Part shown: positions 1-44,209 of the stretch, piece after piece
Layout of the letters: each line of letters begins with the position of its first letter
How positions within the stretch are numbered: position 1 is the stretch's first letter
Origin: a virus
DNA: 44,209 nt
Virus genome (UHGV): UHGV-0168748
Direction: 5' to 3' (one strand)
Made by a program: the position numbers and the translations under genes
The notes under the pieces: model-generated
The model's input: only the letters and a program-made list of their open reading frames with translations
What the model was told of the DNA's origin: nothing
Databases searched by the model: none

Positions 1-51
1 AGATCTACACTTAAGGAGTCGTCGGCAGCGTCAGATGTGTATAAGATACAG
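1..51. other. Illumina Nextera i5 adapter (flow-cell stub, 8-nt index, Tn5 mosaic end); library artefact
   Basis: Reads AGATCTACAC-TTAAGGAG-TCGTCGGCAGCGTC-AGATGTGTATAAGATACAG; inverted copy at 44161-44209 with two mismatches. Confidence 0.9.
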
Positions 52-15465: not shown

Positions 15466-15516
15466 AAAAAAATAAAGCTACCCCTAGACCAGACGGTCTA
15501 GGGGTAATCTTTTTAT
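15466..15516. terminator. bidirectional rho-independent terminator
   Basis: A-run, CCCCTAGACC-AGAC-GGTCTAGGGG, T-run; between convergent genes. Confidence 0.75.
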
Positions 15517-16412
15517 TTCCCACGATAAAATCCAGAGATATAACTCGGCGCTATCCATCGCCATTCTCGCCAGCGTATTTCTGACATCTTACCACACCAC
15601 ACACGCTTCCAGTGTGCACGGCGGATGTGTGCTGCACAGTAAACCGCTAAACAAACCTCATGCCCTTCCTTGCGTTGCTGTTCTATATCTTCCCACTGCA
15701 CTGGACTTACGTCTAAAACGACCGCTTCACTACGTGGACGAATTTCGGTATCAGGAACATAACGAATTGACCTTCCACGAAATTCTTTCTTCTCACGTTC
15801 GGTTCGTTTAATTCGTGACGAAAGATAAAGTCCGATGTAAACAGCGTCCAGCAGTCGTTGACACTCCTTAACCGAAGTAAGGAACGGCTTTAGCTCGACG
15901 AAATCATCCCTACCTTTATCGATTGTGAAAATCTCGAAATCCATGTATACCGATTCTTCACGTTCTTCACACGACATAACGAAGAGAACTTCTTCACCTT
16001 CGTAAAGACGTCTTCCGATAAATAACGTGATTGAACTTTCGTCGAGGTTCACCGTAACCGAGAAAGTGAATGAAGGGATGGTTTCTATCCAGAAGTACGG
16101 GATATTCTTTAGTCTCTCGGTTTTTGCTAAGAGCGCCATCAGTTCTTCATCCGAGATGATTTCAACAGCAGCGTATTGCCATCCTAGCCCTAAAGACTGT
16201 TTAATCAATCTTGGAATTTGTTCTGTAACACCGTACTCACGGTAGGTTGGATCTTTAACCGGTATAAACGTTACGGGTATTTGACGTTTATATTCGTTAA
16301 TGAACCGTACGAAACGACACTGCTCTAACCCGTGTAACGTTTGGTGTGCTCTTTCTATTTGTTCACTCATGCGCCTTAGCGCTTTCCCATAAAGTCTACT
16401 ATTCGCTGTCAT
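15513..16412 (-). CDS. hypothetical protein
   Basis: 299-aa track ORF; Cys/His-rich C-terminal segment. Confidence 0.55.
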   Translation of the reverse strand: MTANSRLYGKALRRMSEQIERAHQTLHGLEQCRFVRFINEYKRQIPVTFIPVKDPTYREYGVTEQIPRLIKQSLGLGWQYAAVEIISDEELMALLAKTERLKNIPYFWIETIPSFTFSVTVNLDESSITLFIGRRLYEGEEVLFVMSCEEREESVYMDFEIFTIDKGRDDFVELKPFLTSVKECQRLLDAVYIGLYLSSRIKRTEREKKEFRGRSIRYVPDTEIRPRSEAVVLDVSPVQWEDIEQQRKEGHEVCLAVYCAAHIRRAHWKRVWCGKMSEIRWREWRWIAPSYISGFYRGK

Positions 16413-24185: not shown

Positions 24186-24809
24186 ATGGCCACGCGCTTA
24201 CCACTACAGGTCCCTGTTAACACTACAGGGCTTTTTAAAGTAAAGACACCTTTTACTTTATCCGAAACGGTCATTTATACAGTAGAAGCGTCACGTACCT
24301 TCCCAGATTTAGTACGTCAGAATATTGACGTTTATAACGAGTATTACCAGCCAGTCGGCCTGAGTCGTGAAGAATATTTAGCAGATGCGAATGTCAGTGC
24401 ATCCATTCTGACGTTTAAGTCTCGCGACGGACAGGTTGCGTATATACCCGACACTTACCTGGAGTCATATCCTGGTCTGTCTGGGATTACGTATCAGCGG
24501 AACGTGATGGTGATTGATCTGGCGCTTGTACCAGACTACGTGAATGTGTCGGCGATGACCAAAGACGTTTCGGATATACTTACCCACACACTGGGGATTG
24601 ATCCGAAAGTTGAGGTCACGACGCTCGAGTATGAAGGGAAAGTGACGGAAGAACAACACCTACAGATGGAAGCGGCACGAAAGAATAAAATTCGTGAATC
24701 GATTCCATTAGGTGAACAGGTGACTGCATTAACGGAAGAAAACAAAAAATTAAAAGAGTTAAACAACCAAATGTTAGAGATTCTTAAAGCTAACGGGTTA
24801 GTTAACTAA
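24186..24809 (+). CDS. hypothetical protein with C-terminal coiled coil
   Basis: 207-aa ORF 4 nt after the previous stop. Confidence 0.55.
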   Translation: MATRLPLQVPVNTTGLFKVKTPFTLSETVIYTVEASRTFPDLVRQNIDVYNEYYQPVGLSREEYLADANVSASILTFKSRDGQVAYIPDTYLESYPGLSGITYQRNVMVIDLALVPDYVNVSAMTKDVSDILTHTLGIDPKVEVTTLEYEGKVTEEQHLQMEAARKNKIRESIPLGEQVTALTEENKKLKELNNQMLEILKANGLVN

Positions 24810-24856
24810 AAAAAGAATTACCCTACTCCCGAAGGAGTAGGGTAACTTTTATTTTG
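24806..24856. terminator. bidirectional rho-independent terminator
   Basis: A-run, TACCCTACTCC-CGAA-GGAGTAGGGTA, T-run; between convergent genes. Confidence 0.75.
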
Positions 24857-35941: not shown

Positions 35942-36397
35942 TCAAGGACGGCTATGTCCACAGTTCTTAAAGAAAGTTTCGGGCAGACGCTCACCATCTA
36001 CAATAAAGTTAGCGGCTTCGTTACCGTTGATAGCCACACCGAAGCTTTTTGCATTAGCGATAGCATTAGCGAAGGCAACCCAAGCTTTTTCTGCTTTGTC
36101 GCTGCCGTCAATAGTGGGAATGATATAGTTTTTGCCGTTTACGACAATACTCATTTCGTTGTCTTCGGCATTAGTTGAACCGACCGGTTCACCGTAATAC
36201 CAAACCATGCGACCGTAAAACTTACGATTAGCCGTTGCGGTATCGCAGTTGATAGACAAGCTGTTCCCATTTTCGTCTTCGATTTCGTAAACAGCATTTC
36301 CCGGACTTTGAAGTCCTTCCCAGCTTCCGATTGCGGCGTAAGCGTTATTGAGACCGAAAGTTAAAAGGGTTACTAAGAATGCGATAAAAGTTTTCAT
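35942..36397 (-). CDS. small secreted protein, paralogue of 35434-35904
   Basis: Signal peptide; conserved blocks SINCDTA, SIVVNGKNY, AWVAFANAI. Confidence 0.55.
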   Translation of the reverse strand: MKTFIAFLVTLLTFGLNNAYAAIGSWEGLQSPGNAVYEIEDENGNSLSINCDTATANRKFYGRMVWYYGEPVGSTNAEDNEMSIVVNGKNYIIPTIDGSDKAEKAWVAFANAIANAKSFGVAINGNEAANFIVDGERLPETFFKNCGHSRP

Positions 36398-36446
36398 TGA
36401 AATACTCCTTAAAGGTTAACAGGTTAAAAGAGTTAATCGTAACTCT

Positions 36447-36470
36447 CACCTAAGTAATATATATCTGAAA
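36447..36470. promoter_or_regulatory. conserved 24-bp intergenic element, copy 1
   Basis: CACCTAAGTAATATATATCTGAAA; 23/24 identical to 40771-40794; flanked by hairpin AGAGTTA-ATCG-TAACTCT. Confidence 0.45.
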
Positions 36471-36489
36471 TTATTTCTAATCGTACTGA

Positions 36490-36520
36490 ACAAAAAAGAA
36501 AGTGGGAGCAATGCTCCCAC
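36490..36520 (-). terminator. rho-independent terminator
   Basis: GTGGGAG-CAATG-CTCCCAC, U-run on minus strand. Confidence 0.6.
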
Positions 36521-36525
36521 TGCGT

Positions 36526-39099: not shown

Positions 39100-39654
39100 T
39101 TAAACATTATAAGCTAAGAACAACAATTGTTTACCTACTTTACGCACGGTATACCAGCCATGCGCTTTAGCGACAGCGATGAGGGTTTCCCAGTCGTCAG
39201 CATTACAATGTTCTTTCCGAAGTTGTTCAAACAACGCTTCAGCTTCGTCTTGATTTAACAGCTTACCCGGATTGTCTGGCGTGCAATCAGTAGGGCTTGG
39301 AAAGAAGCTATACAGACGCGCTAAGAGAAAATCAACCGAATACTTAACACCTTCCTTATAAACCAACACAGATGTTTTCCCTTCGTGGAAGAAACTGCCT
39401 GTTTTCCAAGCGGTATCTCCCAGTAAGCTTCGAAGGTAAGACGTAAACCCACTTCTGAAAGAGATATCCGTGTTACGTGGAATTCTGCGGAACATCGGTG
39501 TTTCTCCCACCGCTTGTACGGTTACACCCACTACCATCACGTCCGGTGAGATAATGGTATTAGTCAGTACGGTATAAGGACAAGTAAAGTAGTGTTCACC
39601 AACACCCTTTTCAAGAGATTGAACGATTTCATTTTTCAATTTAGCGTGATACAT
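39100..39654 (-). CDS. member C of paralogous family with conserved C-terminal tail
   Basis: Ends ...AVAKAHGWYTVRKVGKQLLFLAYNV. Confidence 0.6.
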   Translation of the reverse strand: MYHAKLKNEIVQSLEKGVGEHYFTCPYTVLTNTIISPDVMVVGVTVQAVGETPMFRRIPRNTDISFRSGFTSYLRSLLGDTAWKTGSFFHEGKTSVLVYKEGVKYSVDFLLARLYSFFPSPTDCTPDNPGKLLNQDEAEALFEQLRKEHCNADDWETLIAVAKAHGWYTVRKVGKQLLFLAYNV

Positions 39655-39681
39655 GATTATTCTCCTTTTCGGTTTTTTTAC

Positions 39682-40434
39682 TTACGCGTGTTTTAACAAT
39701 AACAAGCGGTTATTGGTAATTTCAGCAGCGCCCCAGCCTCTAACAGTAGCGATGCTAAGTATATCGACTTCATCACGGTATTTCAACATCGGATCGTTGG
39801 GATTGATTTCGATCACGTGAGTATTTCTGGAAATCGTTTCTACTTCTGGGATTTCTTTTACTATATCCGAAGCAATTAACTCAAGAACGTACAGCTCCTC
39901 GAAGCATTTAAAGTAGATATGGACGCCGTATAACTTATCGTTATCGTCCCTTAACGGGTAGAGATTAAAACCAGGACCCAGTAACGTTAGTTCCGCATTG
40001 TAAGGTACTTCAAATTCACGATGAATTAATGCAATTCCGTGGCGGAATAAAGGGAAGTGGGCAAATACAGACATTAATGCCCACTGTTCTGTTATAATGG
40101 TCGGGTCATGGCTAAGCGGTCCAATGTTAGCCAGATTTTCGATAGCGTAGCGTACTGAATTAAAATCGCTTTCGGTAATGATACTGTAAATAAGCATCAC
40201 ACCAGTTTCGCTGTTAAGAATACTGAATACGCTATTAGCATAAGCGGTAATCCGATATTTATCCTCTGGTTCGTCAGTAGGAACGTTTTCAGGCTTAACC
40301 GTTTTGATTTCGACTAATTTAGCAGGGTATTTTGAACCTACTAAATCTTCAACGATAGGAGAGGCGATCTCTAAATAGGTCTTAGCAAAGAGTTCATCTA
40401 AGTATTGGTTAACAAAAACTTCTGCTGTCAGCAT
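39682..40434 (-). CDS. member D of paralogous family with conserved C-terminal tail
   Basis: Ends ...IATVRGWGAAEITNNRLLLLKHA. Confidence 0.55.
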   Translation of the reverse strand: MLTAEVFVNQYLDELFAKTYLEIASPIVEDLVGSKYPAKLVEIKTVKPENVPTDEPEDKYRITAYANSVFSILNSETGVMLIYSIITESDFNSVRYAIENLANIGPLSHDPTIITEQWALMSVFAHFPLFRHGIALIHREFEVPYNAELTLLGPGFNLYPLRDDNDKLYGVHIYFKCFEELYVLELIASDIVKEIPEVETISRNTHVIEINPNDPMLKYRDEVDILSIATVRGWGAAEITNNRLLLLKHA

Positions 40435-40493
40435 GGATTATTCTCCTAAAAAGGAATAAGGAAGTCACTACGTTCCTCTGGGAAGAGTATGTC

Positions 40494-40555
40494 GGTATAC
40501 TACGTATACCTCCGCTATTTATATCCGTATACATAATGCCCCCTACCCCCTACCG
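40494..40555. promoter_or_regulatory. cluster of GTATAC half-sites and CCCCCTAC direct repeat
   Basis: GGTATAC-TAC-GTATACC, CCGTATAC and CCCCCTACCCCCTACC within a 385-bp intergenic region. Confidence 0.35.
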
Positions 40556-40610
40556 GTATCCCGAGTAGCAGAATAAAGGGACAATCTGTAAATTTTAAGT
40601 AATACTATGA

Positions 40611-40688
40611 TTACCGAGGAATAGCTGGGTTGTAGCGTTTGAACTGTTCGATGACTTCGTCCAATCCGCCTTTCTTCTCAGTAGACAT
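40611..40688 (-). CDS. possible 25-aa small ORF, not in ORF track
   Basis: Hand-translated MSTEKKGGLDEVIEQFKRYNPAIPR with AGGAAACAGACC RBS. Confidence 0.25.
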   Translation of the reverse strand: MSTEKKGGLDEVIEQFKRYNPAIPR

Positions 40689-40770
40689 TGGTCTGTTTCC
40701 TAATAACGTGGTAACTCCGTTTCGAAAGAAACGTGTCCGTAGGGACTGAACTCGCACTTCAGTCCCTATT

Positions 40771-40794
40771 CACCTAAGTAAAATATATCTGAAA
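40771..40794. promoter_or_regulatory. conserved 24-bp intergenic element, copy 2
   Basis: CACCTAAGTAAAATATATCTGAAA; adjacent perfect 10-bp hairpin AGGGACTGAA-CTCGCAC-TTCAGTCCCT. Confidence 0.45.
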
Positions 40795-40820
40795 CCAATT
40801 CCGATCTAAGGAACGTCCCG

Positions 40821-41786
40821 ATGGAGAAATCCAGTGTTGATTTTTTCTCAATTGGTATCGTCGCGGAAGACAAACCCCGTGGTACAGATCGGGTAAAAGT
40901 GATACCAATTGAAACCAACTTTGCTAACCCTACTGTGGTGCAATCTGTTTCTTCAGCAACTGAAAAGACGCATGAAACGTCTGGTGCAACAGATAACCTA
41001 ACCATTAAGACGGGTAACACGATAACAGCAAAGTGGTGGAAGTTTAACTCCAACCGAATTAATTCCCCTGACGTTAAACGAGAAGACTACGTTATCTTGT
41101 TACGTTTGGGGAAAACCGATATTTATTTTTGGATTGATTTGAATTTCGCTAACGTTAAGCGATTAGAAGATGCGGTTTATGCGTGGTCGGCTGACCCCGA
41201 AAACCAAATGGCGGATGACCTGTCCAATGCGTATGTGTTGAATGTCTCGACGATTGACAAACATATCACGCTAAGAACATGTATGGTGAATGGCGAGAAA
41301 GCGGCGTGGTTATTCCAGTTTGACAACGCAAACGGATCGTGGCAATGCGTTGACCATAAAGGGAACAAGTATTACATTAACTCGGTCGAAGATGATCTCG
41401 GGTTTGAGAATGCGATGCTATCAAAAGTGAACATCAACAAAGAAGATGCGTTCATTTATTCAAAGCGTTCTATTAACCTGGAAACAAAAACGATTAATGA
41501 GAAATGCGAAGTTCGCAATACAGAAGCATCGAAATCCGTTACCTTTAAAACACAAACCTGGTTAACGGAAGCGGGGAGTTCGACCACCTTTAAAACGCCG
41601 AACTTTAAACAAGAAGGGAATGAAGCACAATTCACCGGTAATCTTGAAGTGGCTAAAAACTTCAAGTACGGCGGTACTGGGGAAGGTGTGGGTATCTTTA
41701 CGGTTAAAGATGCGGTTATTGCGGGCATTACTTTCAGCGTACACATCCACGACGGTGTACACGGTCCTACTTCGGGTCCACGGTAA
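40821..41786 (+). CDS. hypothetical protein with His-rich C-terminal tip
   Basis: 321 aa; ends FSVHIHDGVHGPTSGPR; tail fibre or spike tip is speculation. Confidence 0.55.
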   Translation: MEKSSVDFFSIGIVAEDKPRGTDRVKVIPIETNFANPTVVQSVSSATEKTHETSGATDNLTIKTGNTITAKWWKFNSNRINSPDVKREDYVILLRLGKTDIYFWIDLNFANVKRLEDAVYAWSADPENQMADDLSNAYVLNVSTIDKHITLRTCMVNGEKAAWLFQFDNANGSWQCVDHKGNKYYINSVEDDLGFENAMLSKVNINKEDAFIYSKRSINLETKTINEKCEVRNTEASKSVTFKTQTWLTEAGSSTTFKTPNFKQEGNEAQFTGNLEVAKNFKYGGTGEGVGIFTVKDAVIAGITFSVHIHDGVHGPTSGPR

Positions 41787-41904
41787 TTCCCCTTTTTCTT
41801 ACGTTGCGTTTATATATTGTGACCTGACGTTGGTAAGCTTCTTATCAACACTTTTCTTAAACCCATCGTTTAGTTAAGCAGGCCACTTCTTTTCGCGCAC
41901 TCTT

Positions 41905-41938
41905 CTCCTCCCTTCGGGGAGGAGTTATCTTATGCTTT
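41905..41938 (+). terminator. rho-independent terminator
   Basis: CTCCTCCC-TTCG-GGGAGGAG followed by T-rich tract. Confidence 0.55.
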
Positions 41939-41995
41939 GGTTGTAACACACTACGGTCTTAGACCCGTATTCCTTTTCTGAAATGGAGAGCTGTT

Positions 41996-42205
41996 ATGTC
42001 TATTAAAGAGTTCTCTTCTGCTGAGCATATCCCAGAAGAGTTTAAGAAAATTGGTAACGTTAGTGCCTTTGGTGATACCGTTGACCACGTAACCGGTAAA
42101 CTGGCTGCTGAAGCCGAGAAAATCGGTGGTGACGCATTTAAAGTTATCGGTATCTCTGGTAACAACAAACTGCACGGCAACGCGATCGTCTACAAAAAAG
42201 ACTAA
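41996..42205 (+). CDS. DUF1471 (YhcN/BhsA/McbA-like) domain protein lacking signal peptide
   Basis: GDAFKVIGISGNNKLHGNAIVYKK matches the DUF1471 core; GGAGAG RBS; starts MSIKEF with no hydrophobic leader. Confidence 0.6.
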   Translation: MSIKEFSSAEHIPEEFKKIGNVSAFGDTVDHVTGKLAAEAEKIGGDAFKVIGISGNNKLHGNAIVYKKD

Positions 42206-42206
42206 G

Positions 42207-42267
42207 CGAAAAAAAAAACGTGCTACTCCTACCCTCTAAGAGGGTAGGAGGTTACTTTATTTTTTTC
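42207..42267. terminator. bidirectional rho-independent terminator
   Basis: A10, CTCCTACCCT-CTAAG-AGGGTAGGAG, T-run; between convergent genes. Confidence 0.75.
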
Positions 42268-43519
42268 GTGCACGAAAACGATGCATTTCTAAATACACTT
42301 TTTCCCAGGGGCCGAAGGGCCCGACTATCGCTTGCGCATCGTTAATCTTCTTCTGGTTATACCAGCGAGCTTCACGAAATACGTAGTTTTGACTGTCGAA
42401 CTCGGTGGTGTTAAATACCCACTCACCTTCTTCCCACGTAGGCCAATAACCTACCGTCTTTCCGAATCGGTTATTTAAATAGCCTAACGGTTTTTCAGAA
42501 TCAGGATCGTTAGGGTCTTTGAGATAACAACGTCCCCAAATCGCGTTATGCGATACGCCCACAATCTCTTCTTCTAAATACGGATTATCCACCGTAAAAA
42601 TAAACGAAGATTCGTGAAGTAAGAGCGCTTTTAATGTTTCTGGGTTGCGAATTCGTTGAACGTTAGCAGGTGAAGATAAATCCCCTACACCGATAGCATC
42701 CCAATCGTAGTAACGCCGTGTTTCTAACACCGTGCGCGCAAGATCGAAATTCGGTAAAGAAATCATAATCGCACGATCGGAGAAATAACCGTTCGCAGGC
42801 AGCCAACGTAACATCCCACCAATAACGAACCCTACGGTTTTACCGGTTATGGATTCGGGCAACGAAATCATTAACGTTGAATAGTAATCGCGCGTGGTGT
42901 CGAGTTTGTTTAAGGTAAGATTAGCAATCGGGTATGTTTTCACCGCACCGAGCGCATCAAAAACCATGCAACCGATATCTGGTGTACCTGCACGTCTAAC
43001 GATATTCCCAGCACCAGGTAATCGTACACCAACAGAATCAGATTGATGCGGCACCCATTGCCCGTTGATGTTGTATAGCACCCCGTTACGGTATTTGTCT
43101 TTCCATTTGTCTTCACAGACTATCACCACATCTGTCGCATCATCCAGACTGAAATCCTGACTGTAATGATAACCCGCAGGGCACAGGTAAGACTCAACGG
43201 GTACGTCTGCGTTAATCGATTGGTAATGCGCCCAGCTGAATTCCAGTTTCGGTAATCCTGCTTTTAAGGTAGGAATAACCACACCGGCTTTTTCATTCAA
43301 CCAGTCTTGTAAAGTATCGGTTCGGTTTTGTAATTCAGCAAGGTGATACTGGCTGACTAACGTATAGTCTTTACCAAGCGCACTCAGGCCGACCTCAAAG
43401 GTGTGGTAATCCGAACACAGTGTAGCTAAAGGTTGCGTGACATCGATGGCTCCCCAGGTACGGGACTCTCGAGAGAAGCCAAAAGCGCTGTCGGGCCGCA
43501 CTTGATAAGCAGTAGTCAC
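42257..43519 (-). CDS. hypothetical protein (420 aa)
   Basis: Track ORF; function not recognised. Confidence 0.6.
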   Translation of the reverse strand: MTTAYQVRPDSAFGFSRESRTWGAIDVTQPLATLCSDYHTFEVGLSALGKDYTLVSQYHLAELQNRTDTLQDWLNEKAGVVIPTLKAGLPKLEFSWAHYQSINADVPVESYLCPAGYHYSQDFSLDDATDVVIVCEDKWKDKYRNGVLYNINGQWVPHQSDSVGVRLPGAGNIVRRAGTPDIGCMVFDALGAVKTYPIANLTLNKLDTTRDYYSTLMISLPESITGKTVGFVIGGMLRWLPANGYFSDRAIMISLPNFDLARTVLETRRYYDWDAIGVGDLSSPANVQRIRNPETLKALLLHESSFIFTVDNPYLEEEIVGVSHNAIWGRCYLKDPNDPDSEKPLGYLNNRFGKTVGYWPTWEEGEWVFNTTEFDSQNYVFREARWYNQKKINDAQAIVGPFGPWEKVYLEMHRFRARKK

Positions 43520-43586
43520 AGCTCTTTTCCTCTATAGATTCAAGTCATAGTATGAACTCGACGCCCACGGATTATAGGAGTAGATA

Positions 43587-44160
43587 ATGGCTGTCGTCCT
43601 AGACCCACACTTCAAAGAACCGGGGAATAAAATAACCGGTGAAGCGGTCGCCGTCATTGGTACGAAGTACCGAATGTTGGTACCTGCCCACGCCCCTTTT
43701 TTCACCACGTCCCTGGTGGTCAAGAGCGGCGGCAAAACACTGACCTTAGGCGACGATTACGTAATTACACACCCGTACGAGACAGGTATGTTGCGCACAG
43801 CCTATCTCATTCACGGGATGATTTGGATTGTTAACGACAAATACAAGTCGAATTTTACTGTGGATTATCATGCCGTTGGTTGTGGTGAAGCCACACAGCA
43901 GCAGATTAGCGCAGAGCGTGAGTTAAATAAAGATAAATACCCGTCTACGTGTCAATGGGACACCGTTATCGGGGACGTTTACTTTCCACCCGTTGACATT
44001 CAGTTCGATTGGGAAAACTGGAAAGGTGAACTGGAGTTAATGCAAGCCATCGCAGGCTTAGGCGACTCCTTAGGTAACGTTGTAAATCGGTTAGACCCGA
44101 TTGCACGTAACACGTTAGATATTGAGCATCGTGCTAACGGCACGGTTATCACGTCAGAAC
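43587..44160 (+). CDS. hypothetical protein, 3'-truncated by contig end
   Basis: ORF runs into the adapter without a stop; GGAGTAGATA-ATG RBS; the last residues of the track translation (VSYTHL...) are adapter-encoded. Confidence 0.55.
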
Positions 44161-44209
44161 CTGTCTCTTATACACATCTGACGCTGCCGACGACTCCTTA
44201 CGTGTAGAT
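44161..44209. other. Illumina Nextera i5 adapter, reverse complement; library artefact
   Basis: CTGTCTCTTATACACATCT-GACGCTGCCGACGA-CTCCTTAC-GTGTAGAT. Confidence 0.95.

Follow-up and report, generated by a model that had tools for sequence, protein, structure and literature searches.

Untrimmed Nextera i5 adapter, not a biological terminal repeat, at both ends of a 44-kb jumbo-phage contig

INTRODUCTION

The oligonucleotides used for Tn5-based library preparation are documented base by base. Tn5ME-A is given as TCGTCGGCAGCGTCAGATGTGTATAAGAGACAG and Tn5MErev as CTGTCTCTTATACACATCT by Picelli et al. 2014 (PMC4248319), where the 19-bp mosaic end is described as an engineered in vitro replacement for the wild-type outside and inside ends of IS50. 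According to a protocol paper (PMC12067302), the i5 PCR primer consists of AATGATACGGCGACCACCGAGATCTACAC, the i5 index and TCGTCGGCAGCGTC, and the index list of the same paper has GTAAGGAG as i5 index 505.

Here we describe a stretch of viral DNA of 44,209 nucleotides (UHGV virus genome UHGV-0168748; hereafter the window), which is identical to ENA ERZ1026973 contig NODE_75_length_44209_cov_5.416180, a name that records a k-mer coverage of ∼5.4. Its two extremities are built from the oligonucleotides listed above, and a preliminary description, made from the sequence alone, had taken them for Nextera adapter rather than for a biological terminal repeat. With inserts of less than read length, read 2 continues into CTGTCTCTTATACACATCT, then into GACGCTGCCGACGA, the reverse complement of the index and GTGTAGATCT... 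Our search of the literature for adapter contamination in assemblies and for false inverted terminal repeats (ITRs) made by adapters returned nothing clearly on point, and a search for the accessions of the window returned no mention of them.

RESULTS

Both ends of the window match the Nextera i5 adapter

Read directly, bases 1–51 consist of AGATCTACAC, TTAAGGAG, TCGTCGGCAGCGTC and AGATGTGTATAAGATACAG, in this order, and the reverse complement of bases 44161–44209 consists of ATCTACAC, GTAAGGAG, TCGTCGGCAGCGTC and AGATGTGTATAAGAGACAG. Module by module, both arms are the i5 construct: the 3′ end of P5, index 505, the overhang and the mosaic end (Table 1). In a scripted comparison of both arms with the canonical string, ...GAGATCTACAC followed by GTAAGGAG and TCGTCGGCAGCGTCAGATGTGTATAAGAGACAG, the right arm agreed at 49 of 49 positions and the left arm at 49 of 51, the two exceptions being G to T differences at window positions 11 (the first base of the index) and 47 (base 15 of the mosaic end). 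The identification of the arms as Nextera i5 adapter with a Tn5 mosaic end is thus confirmed against the published oligonucleotides (PMC4248319, PMC12067302). The right boundary between adapter and insert lies exactly between 44160 and 44161, as comparison with a second assembly shows (see below), while the left one lies either between 50 and 51 or between 51 and 52, since base 51 (G) is the last base of the adapter and also matches the genome in the second assembly. At both contig ends the adapter is that of the i5 side, with no i7 side at either, which may be due to chance or one-sided trimming.

Table 1. Adapter modules, insert and interrupted genes along the 44,209-nt window
Feature	Position	Strand	Agreement or basis
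P5 flow-cell sequence, 3′ part (AGATCTACAC)	1–10	+	10 nt; primer layout PMC12067302
i5 index TTAAGGAG, i.e. index 505 (GTAAGGAG) with G to T at 11	11–18	+	7/8; PMC12067302
Tn5ME-A overhang / read-1 primer site (TCGTCGGCAGCGTC)	19–32	+	14/14; PMC4248319
Tn5 mosaic end, 19 nt	33–51	+	18/19, G to T at 47; base 51 also fits genome
Genuine DNA, judged to be an internal fragment of a Seoulvirus-like (SPN3US-like) jumbo-phage genome	52–44160		SPFM17 mapping and second-assembly identity
Virion structural protein gene, 3′ part, 328 codons	54–1040	+	78% identity to SPFM17_00233 residues 414–740
Large gene, 5′ part, 191 codons	43587–44160	+	SPFM17 homologue and second assembly
Adapter-coded extension of the last ORF, residues 192–206 (PVSYTHLTLPTTPYV) and stop	44161–44207	+	direct reading
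Tn5 mosaic end, 19 nt (CTGTCTCTTATACACATCT on the + strand)	44161–44179	-	19/19; PMC4248319
Tn5ME-A overhang	44180–44193	-	14/14
i5 index 505 (GTAAGGAG)	44194–44201	-	exact; PMC12067302
P5, 3′ part (ATCTACAC)	44202–44209	-	8 nt; primer layout PMC12067302

An inverted-repeat search of the window pairs 3–51 with 44161–44209 over 49 nt at 96% complementarity (two mismatches). This pair is the longest inverted repeat of the window, the runner-up being 30 nt long and 73% complementary. The claim that the two extremities are reverse-complement copies differing at two bases therefore stands, with the pairing beginning precisely at base 3: bases 1–2 (AG) are two additional adapter bases unpaired on the right, and a test for an ITR at the exact termini returns a complementary length of 1 from base 1. 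Because of this 2-nt offset a strict end-to-end ITR test would miss the arms, while a general repeat search reports them. With up to three mismatches allowed, neither the Tn5ME-A 33-mer nor the 19-mer mosaic end has a third site in the window, and neither gave a match in 100 dinucleotide-preserving shuffles. A check of the window for internal adapter or chimera junctions found no further mosaic end, no i7-side overhang and no TruSeq stem.

A terminal inverted repeat of 49 nt whose inner 19 nt are the recognition sequence of Tn5 transposase (PMC4248319) might be expected at the true termini of a transposon of the Tn5/IS50 type or of a different mobile element with such repeats. The 19-mer, however, is the engineered hyperactive mosaic end and neither the natural outside end (OE) nor the inside end (IE), and the outer 30–32 nt are synthetic: Tn5ME-A overhang, kit index and P5 flow-cell sequence. 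We take the mosaic end to differ from the natural Tn5 OE at three positions and from the IE at four.

The adapter recurs at the tips of unrelated viral contigs

An exact-match scan of IMG/VR found the 33-mer in at least 120 unrelated viral contigs. Among the matches listed, 119 of 121 are no more than 53 nt away from a contig end and have the mosaic end pointing inward, and the full 8-mers ahead of the 33-mer take 16 different values, including 501–508 of the printed i5 list; at least 13 contigs among these matches carry the index of the window itself, GTAAGGAG. The i7-side oligonucleotide Tn5ME-B shows the same end pattern in at least 120 further IMG/VR contigs, and the end combinations among the matches listed are i5 on both ends, i7 on both ends or one of each. 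A 42-mer from the left end of the window has no exact match in IMG/VR. When a string caps hundreds of unrelated contigs and its barcode varies among them, it is a reagent of library preparation rather than a repeat of biological origin. The same recurrence, with the index varying, speaks against taking the arms for the ITRs of a complete linear phage genome, a reading to which a length of 44 kb, typical of a tailed phage, and two mutually inverted ends would otherwise lend themselves.

Most of the adapter-capped contigs among the matches listed come, in both scans, from a single IMG/VR data set, 3300045988. One of its members, L017 (IMGVR_UViG_3300045988_179125, 14,934 nt), shows at least 120 nt of exact inverted repetition at its termini, starting in the i5 adapter and extending into the insert; this looks like a fold-back assembly artefact, and an ITR-based completeness test would pass this contig as complete. 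Two other IMG/VR contigs, L131 and L188, are capped on either side by the i7-side Nextera adapter. In L131 the stretches of insert that adjoin the adapters share a direct-repeat overlap, as a small circular genome would produce.

The DNA between the arms derives from the interior of a jumbo-phage genome

Nucleotide and translated searches of a phage collection point to the SPN3US-like jumbo phages (genus Seoulvirus), whose genomes are 233–249 kb long and whose matching members infect Salmonella, Escherichia, Erwinia and Proteus. In Salmonella phage SPFM17 (239,842 nt) the ORF at the left end of the window maps to 202337–203317 and that at the right end to 157975–158547, on the same strand and 45.3 kb apart, compared with 44.1 kb in the window, and the sequence between them follows, in collinear order, 45 kb of structural and replication genes of jumbo phages. 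Since both ends fall inside relatives of ∼240 kb, the window represents an internal fragment of about one fifth (roughly 18%) of a genome. The two end proteins are 71–78% identical to the closest records of the phage collection, in which none accounts for 80% of the DNA used as query. The window is part of an undescribed jumbo phage that is SPN3US-like and related to Seoulvirus.

This position bears on both biological readings of the arms. A complete 44-kb phage would not be expected to reproduce only an internal 45-kb block of relatives that measure 233–249 kb, nor to have two incomplete terminal genes. In the case of a transposon the interior is likewise at odds with the proposal, being a collinear block of phage genes of which two are cut in the middle. 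A transposon would also be expected to carry a transposase gene and to be flanked by a 9-bp target duplication; the annotated relatives of the block show no transposase, and the window itself has no sequence outside the arms.

We also considered a circular or permuted genome, as joining the trimmed ends keeps one frame open. This was rejected: used as a query, the joined sequence has its halves at two distinct loci of every relative, ∼45 kb from each other in SPFM17, so the in-frame junction is a coincidence. The ends share no 9-nt overlap and hence do not come from a single Tn5 event.

A second assembly reads past the right junction

Exact protein matching identified the ENA record of the window and also led to a second assembly, ERZ28629076. 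Its scaffold_282 (17,315 nt) is 100% identical to window positions 39410–44160 over 4,751 nt, with no mismatches and no gaps. The alignment ends exactly at 44160, where the scaffold goes on with AGTATGCAACG... and the window with CTGTCTCTTAT..., and from there the scaffold runs through ∼12.5 kb of further phage sequence, including the rest of a 1,440-aa gene. Genuine flanking genome therefore exists at the right end, and the adapter is no part of it, so that the refutation check set by the preliminary description comes out in its favour.

The absence of the right arm from scaffold_282 refutes the transposon reading for that arm and, together with the synthetic composition of both arms and the phage block between them, makes such an element extremely unlikely. 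The extra ∼12.5 kb beyond the supposed terminus is equally incompatible with a finished linear genome, a reading whose probability we consider close to nil. The arms do not form a biological terminal repeat, in agreement with the preliminary description.

At the left end, the window from base 51 on and scaffold_105 (39,379 nt) agree with 100% identity over the 2,670 nt compared; the scaffold extends just 6 nt beyond the junction, with GTGCCC in place of the adapter of the window. The direct evidence for read-through at this end is thin, and the case here rests mostly on the adapter match and on the alignment of the homologue. The near coincidence of the two assembly ends here, within 6 nt, could mean that, although the caps are artefactual, the left break marks a real discontinuity of the DNA, such as a packaging end or terminus, a nick or a modified stretch giving poor sequence. 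Perfect identity over the 7.4 kb compared suggests, however, that both assemblies were made from the same reads, in which case a shared gap at ∼5-fold coverage is expected by chance; besides, the break sits midway in a conserved structural gene, and the assemblies break at different places at the right end and at 39410–39423. We regard such a real discontinuity as highly improbable, and the simplest reading of the shared stop is a real coverage gap in a thin common data set.

It should be noted that ERZ28629076 is interrupted where the window is not. By coordinate arithmetic scaffold_105 ends at about 39423, scaffold_282 starts at 39410, and the two overlap by 14 nt; the window is contiguous across 39410–39423, so that the two assemblies complement each other.

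Both terminal genes are cut and the last one is completed by adapter

The preliminary description had proposed that the first and last ORFs are truncated and that the final residues of the last one are encoded by adapter, and comparison with homologues and direct reading of the adapter bear out both points. Alignment with SPFM17_00233 (740 residues) leaves the left ORF without about 413 N-terminal codons, whereas the public gene call here is a 303-aa product starting at an internal ATG at 129 (129–1040). A contig with the missing codons would be expected to end in, or to overlap, ...GTGCCCGATATAGC.

At the right end, residues 1–191 of the ORF align to residues 1–191 of SPFM17_00169 (annotated with 3,714 nt, or 1,237 aa) and are the first 191 residues of the 1,440-aa gene in scaffold_282. 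The alignment with the homologue ends exactly at the adapter junction, as does the one on the left. Codon 192, CCT at 44160–44162, spans the junction, and translation then continues in adapter to a TAG stop at 44205–44207. The public gene call (43587–44207) is accordingly a chimeric product of 206 aa whose last 15 residues and stop codon are adapter. Protein collections derived from these calls probably contain both this product and the 303-aa one.

Other elements in the window

Apart from the arms, the - strand contains two copies of a 25-nt motif, TTTCAGATATATNTTACTTAGGTGA, at 36446–36470 and 40770–40794, against none expected. Both copies are intergenic, each with a - strand gene downstream of it. 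The first one (region 36394–36521) comes after a terminator hairpin at 36501–36521 and belongs to a stretch of 75–107 nt that is ∼88% identical to Salmonella jumbo phages, where it is unannotated, while the flanking genes are only about 70–77% identical. Searches of this conserved intergenic stretch for tRNA and Rfam families gave no match. The early-promoter core of phiKZ, which we take to be TATATTAC, was tried for it and dropped, with two copies against 1.6 expected and hence no enrichment. The 25-nt motif is a candidate phage-specific promoter.

Two near-perfect hairpins with arms of 22–24 nt and a loop of 4 nt are found at 15467–15518 and 24808–24855, with runs of A on one side and runs of T on the other. 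Lying between convergent genes, they look like ordinary bidirectional terminators.

DISCUSSION

We consider it practically certain that the arms of the window are untrimmed Nextera adapter, left there by assembly and without biological meaning. The order of modules on the + strand at the right end (insert, CTGTCTCTTATACACATCT, GACGCTGCCGACGA, the reverse complement of the index, GTGTAGAT) fits read-2 read-through of short inserts, which is the most likely source of the adapter. The library would have come from Tn5 tagmentation, with i5 index 505 introduced during amplification, and its reads would have been left without adapter trimming. At a k-mer coverage of ∼5x the growing contig may have met the end of the reads, or a competing path, at two places, and the assembler would have extended each of these dead ends with a read-through read, thereby placing the same inward-pointing adapter at both ends. 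Such an arrangement, with inward adapter at either extremity, mimics a terminal inverted repeat of 49 nt. The pair of G to T differences in the left arm corresponds to C to A on the read strand, and base-calling errors in the thinly covered tail of a read, with one or a few reads behind it, are probably the simplest way to account for it.

The importance of these observations is practical only. Caps left in place can be misread as the ends of a transposon or of a complete linear phage genome, and in the present case they have already put two wrong proteins, of 206 and 303 aa, into the public gene-call set. We recommend that bases 52–44160 be kept, base 51 being ambiguous, and that both terminal genes be marked as partial. 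Adapter contamination is common in public viral contig sets, where it can create false terminal repeats as well as false protein termini.

Compared with known systems, the arms share with the natural ends of Tn5/IS50 a 19-nt transposase recognition sequence present in inverted orientation at both ends, but here it is the synthetic mosaic end, with primer, index and flow-cell sequence on its outer side. They resemble the ITRs of linear phage and other viral genomes in being short inverted copies of each other at the two ends of a linear sequence, although the window is a fragment of a genome of ∼240 kb and the repeat is not specific to its phage lineage. The likeness to Nextera i5 read-through in other contigs, in contrast, extends to the sequence and order of all four modules, to the position at the extremity, to the inward orientation and to recurrence; nothing substantial sets the window apart from it, except that its left copy has two G to T changes and that the i5 side is found at both ends.
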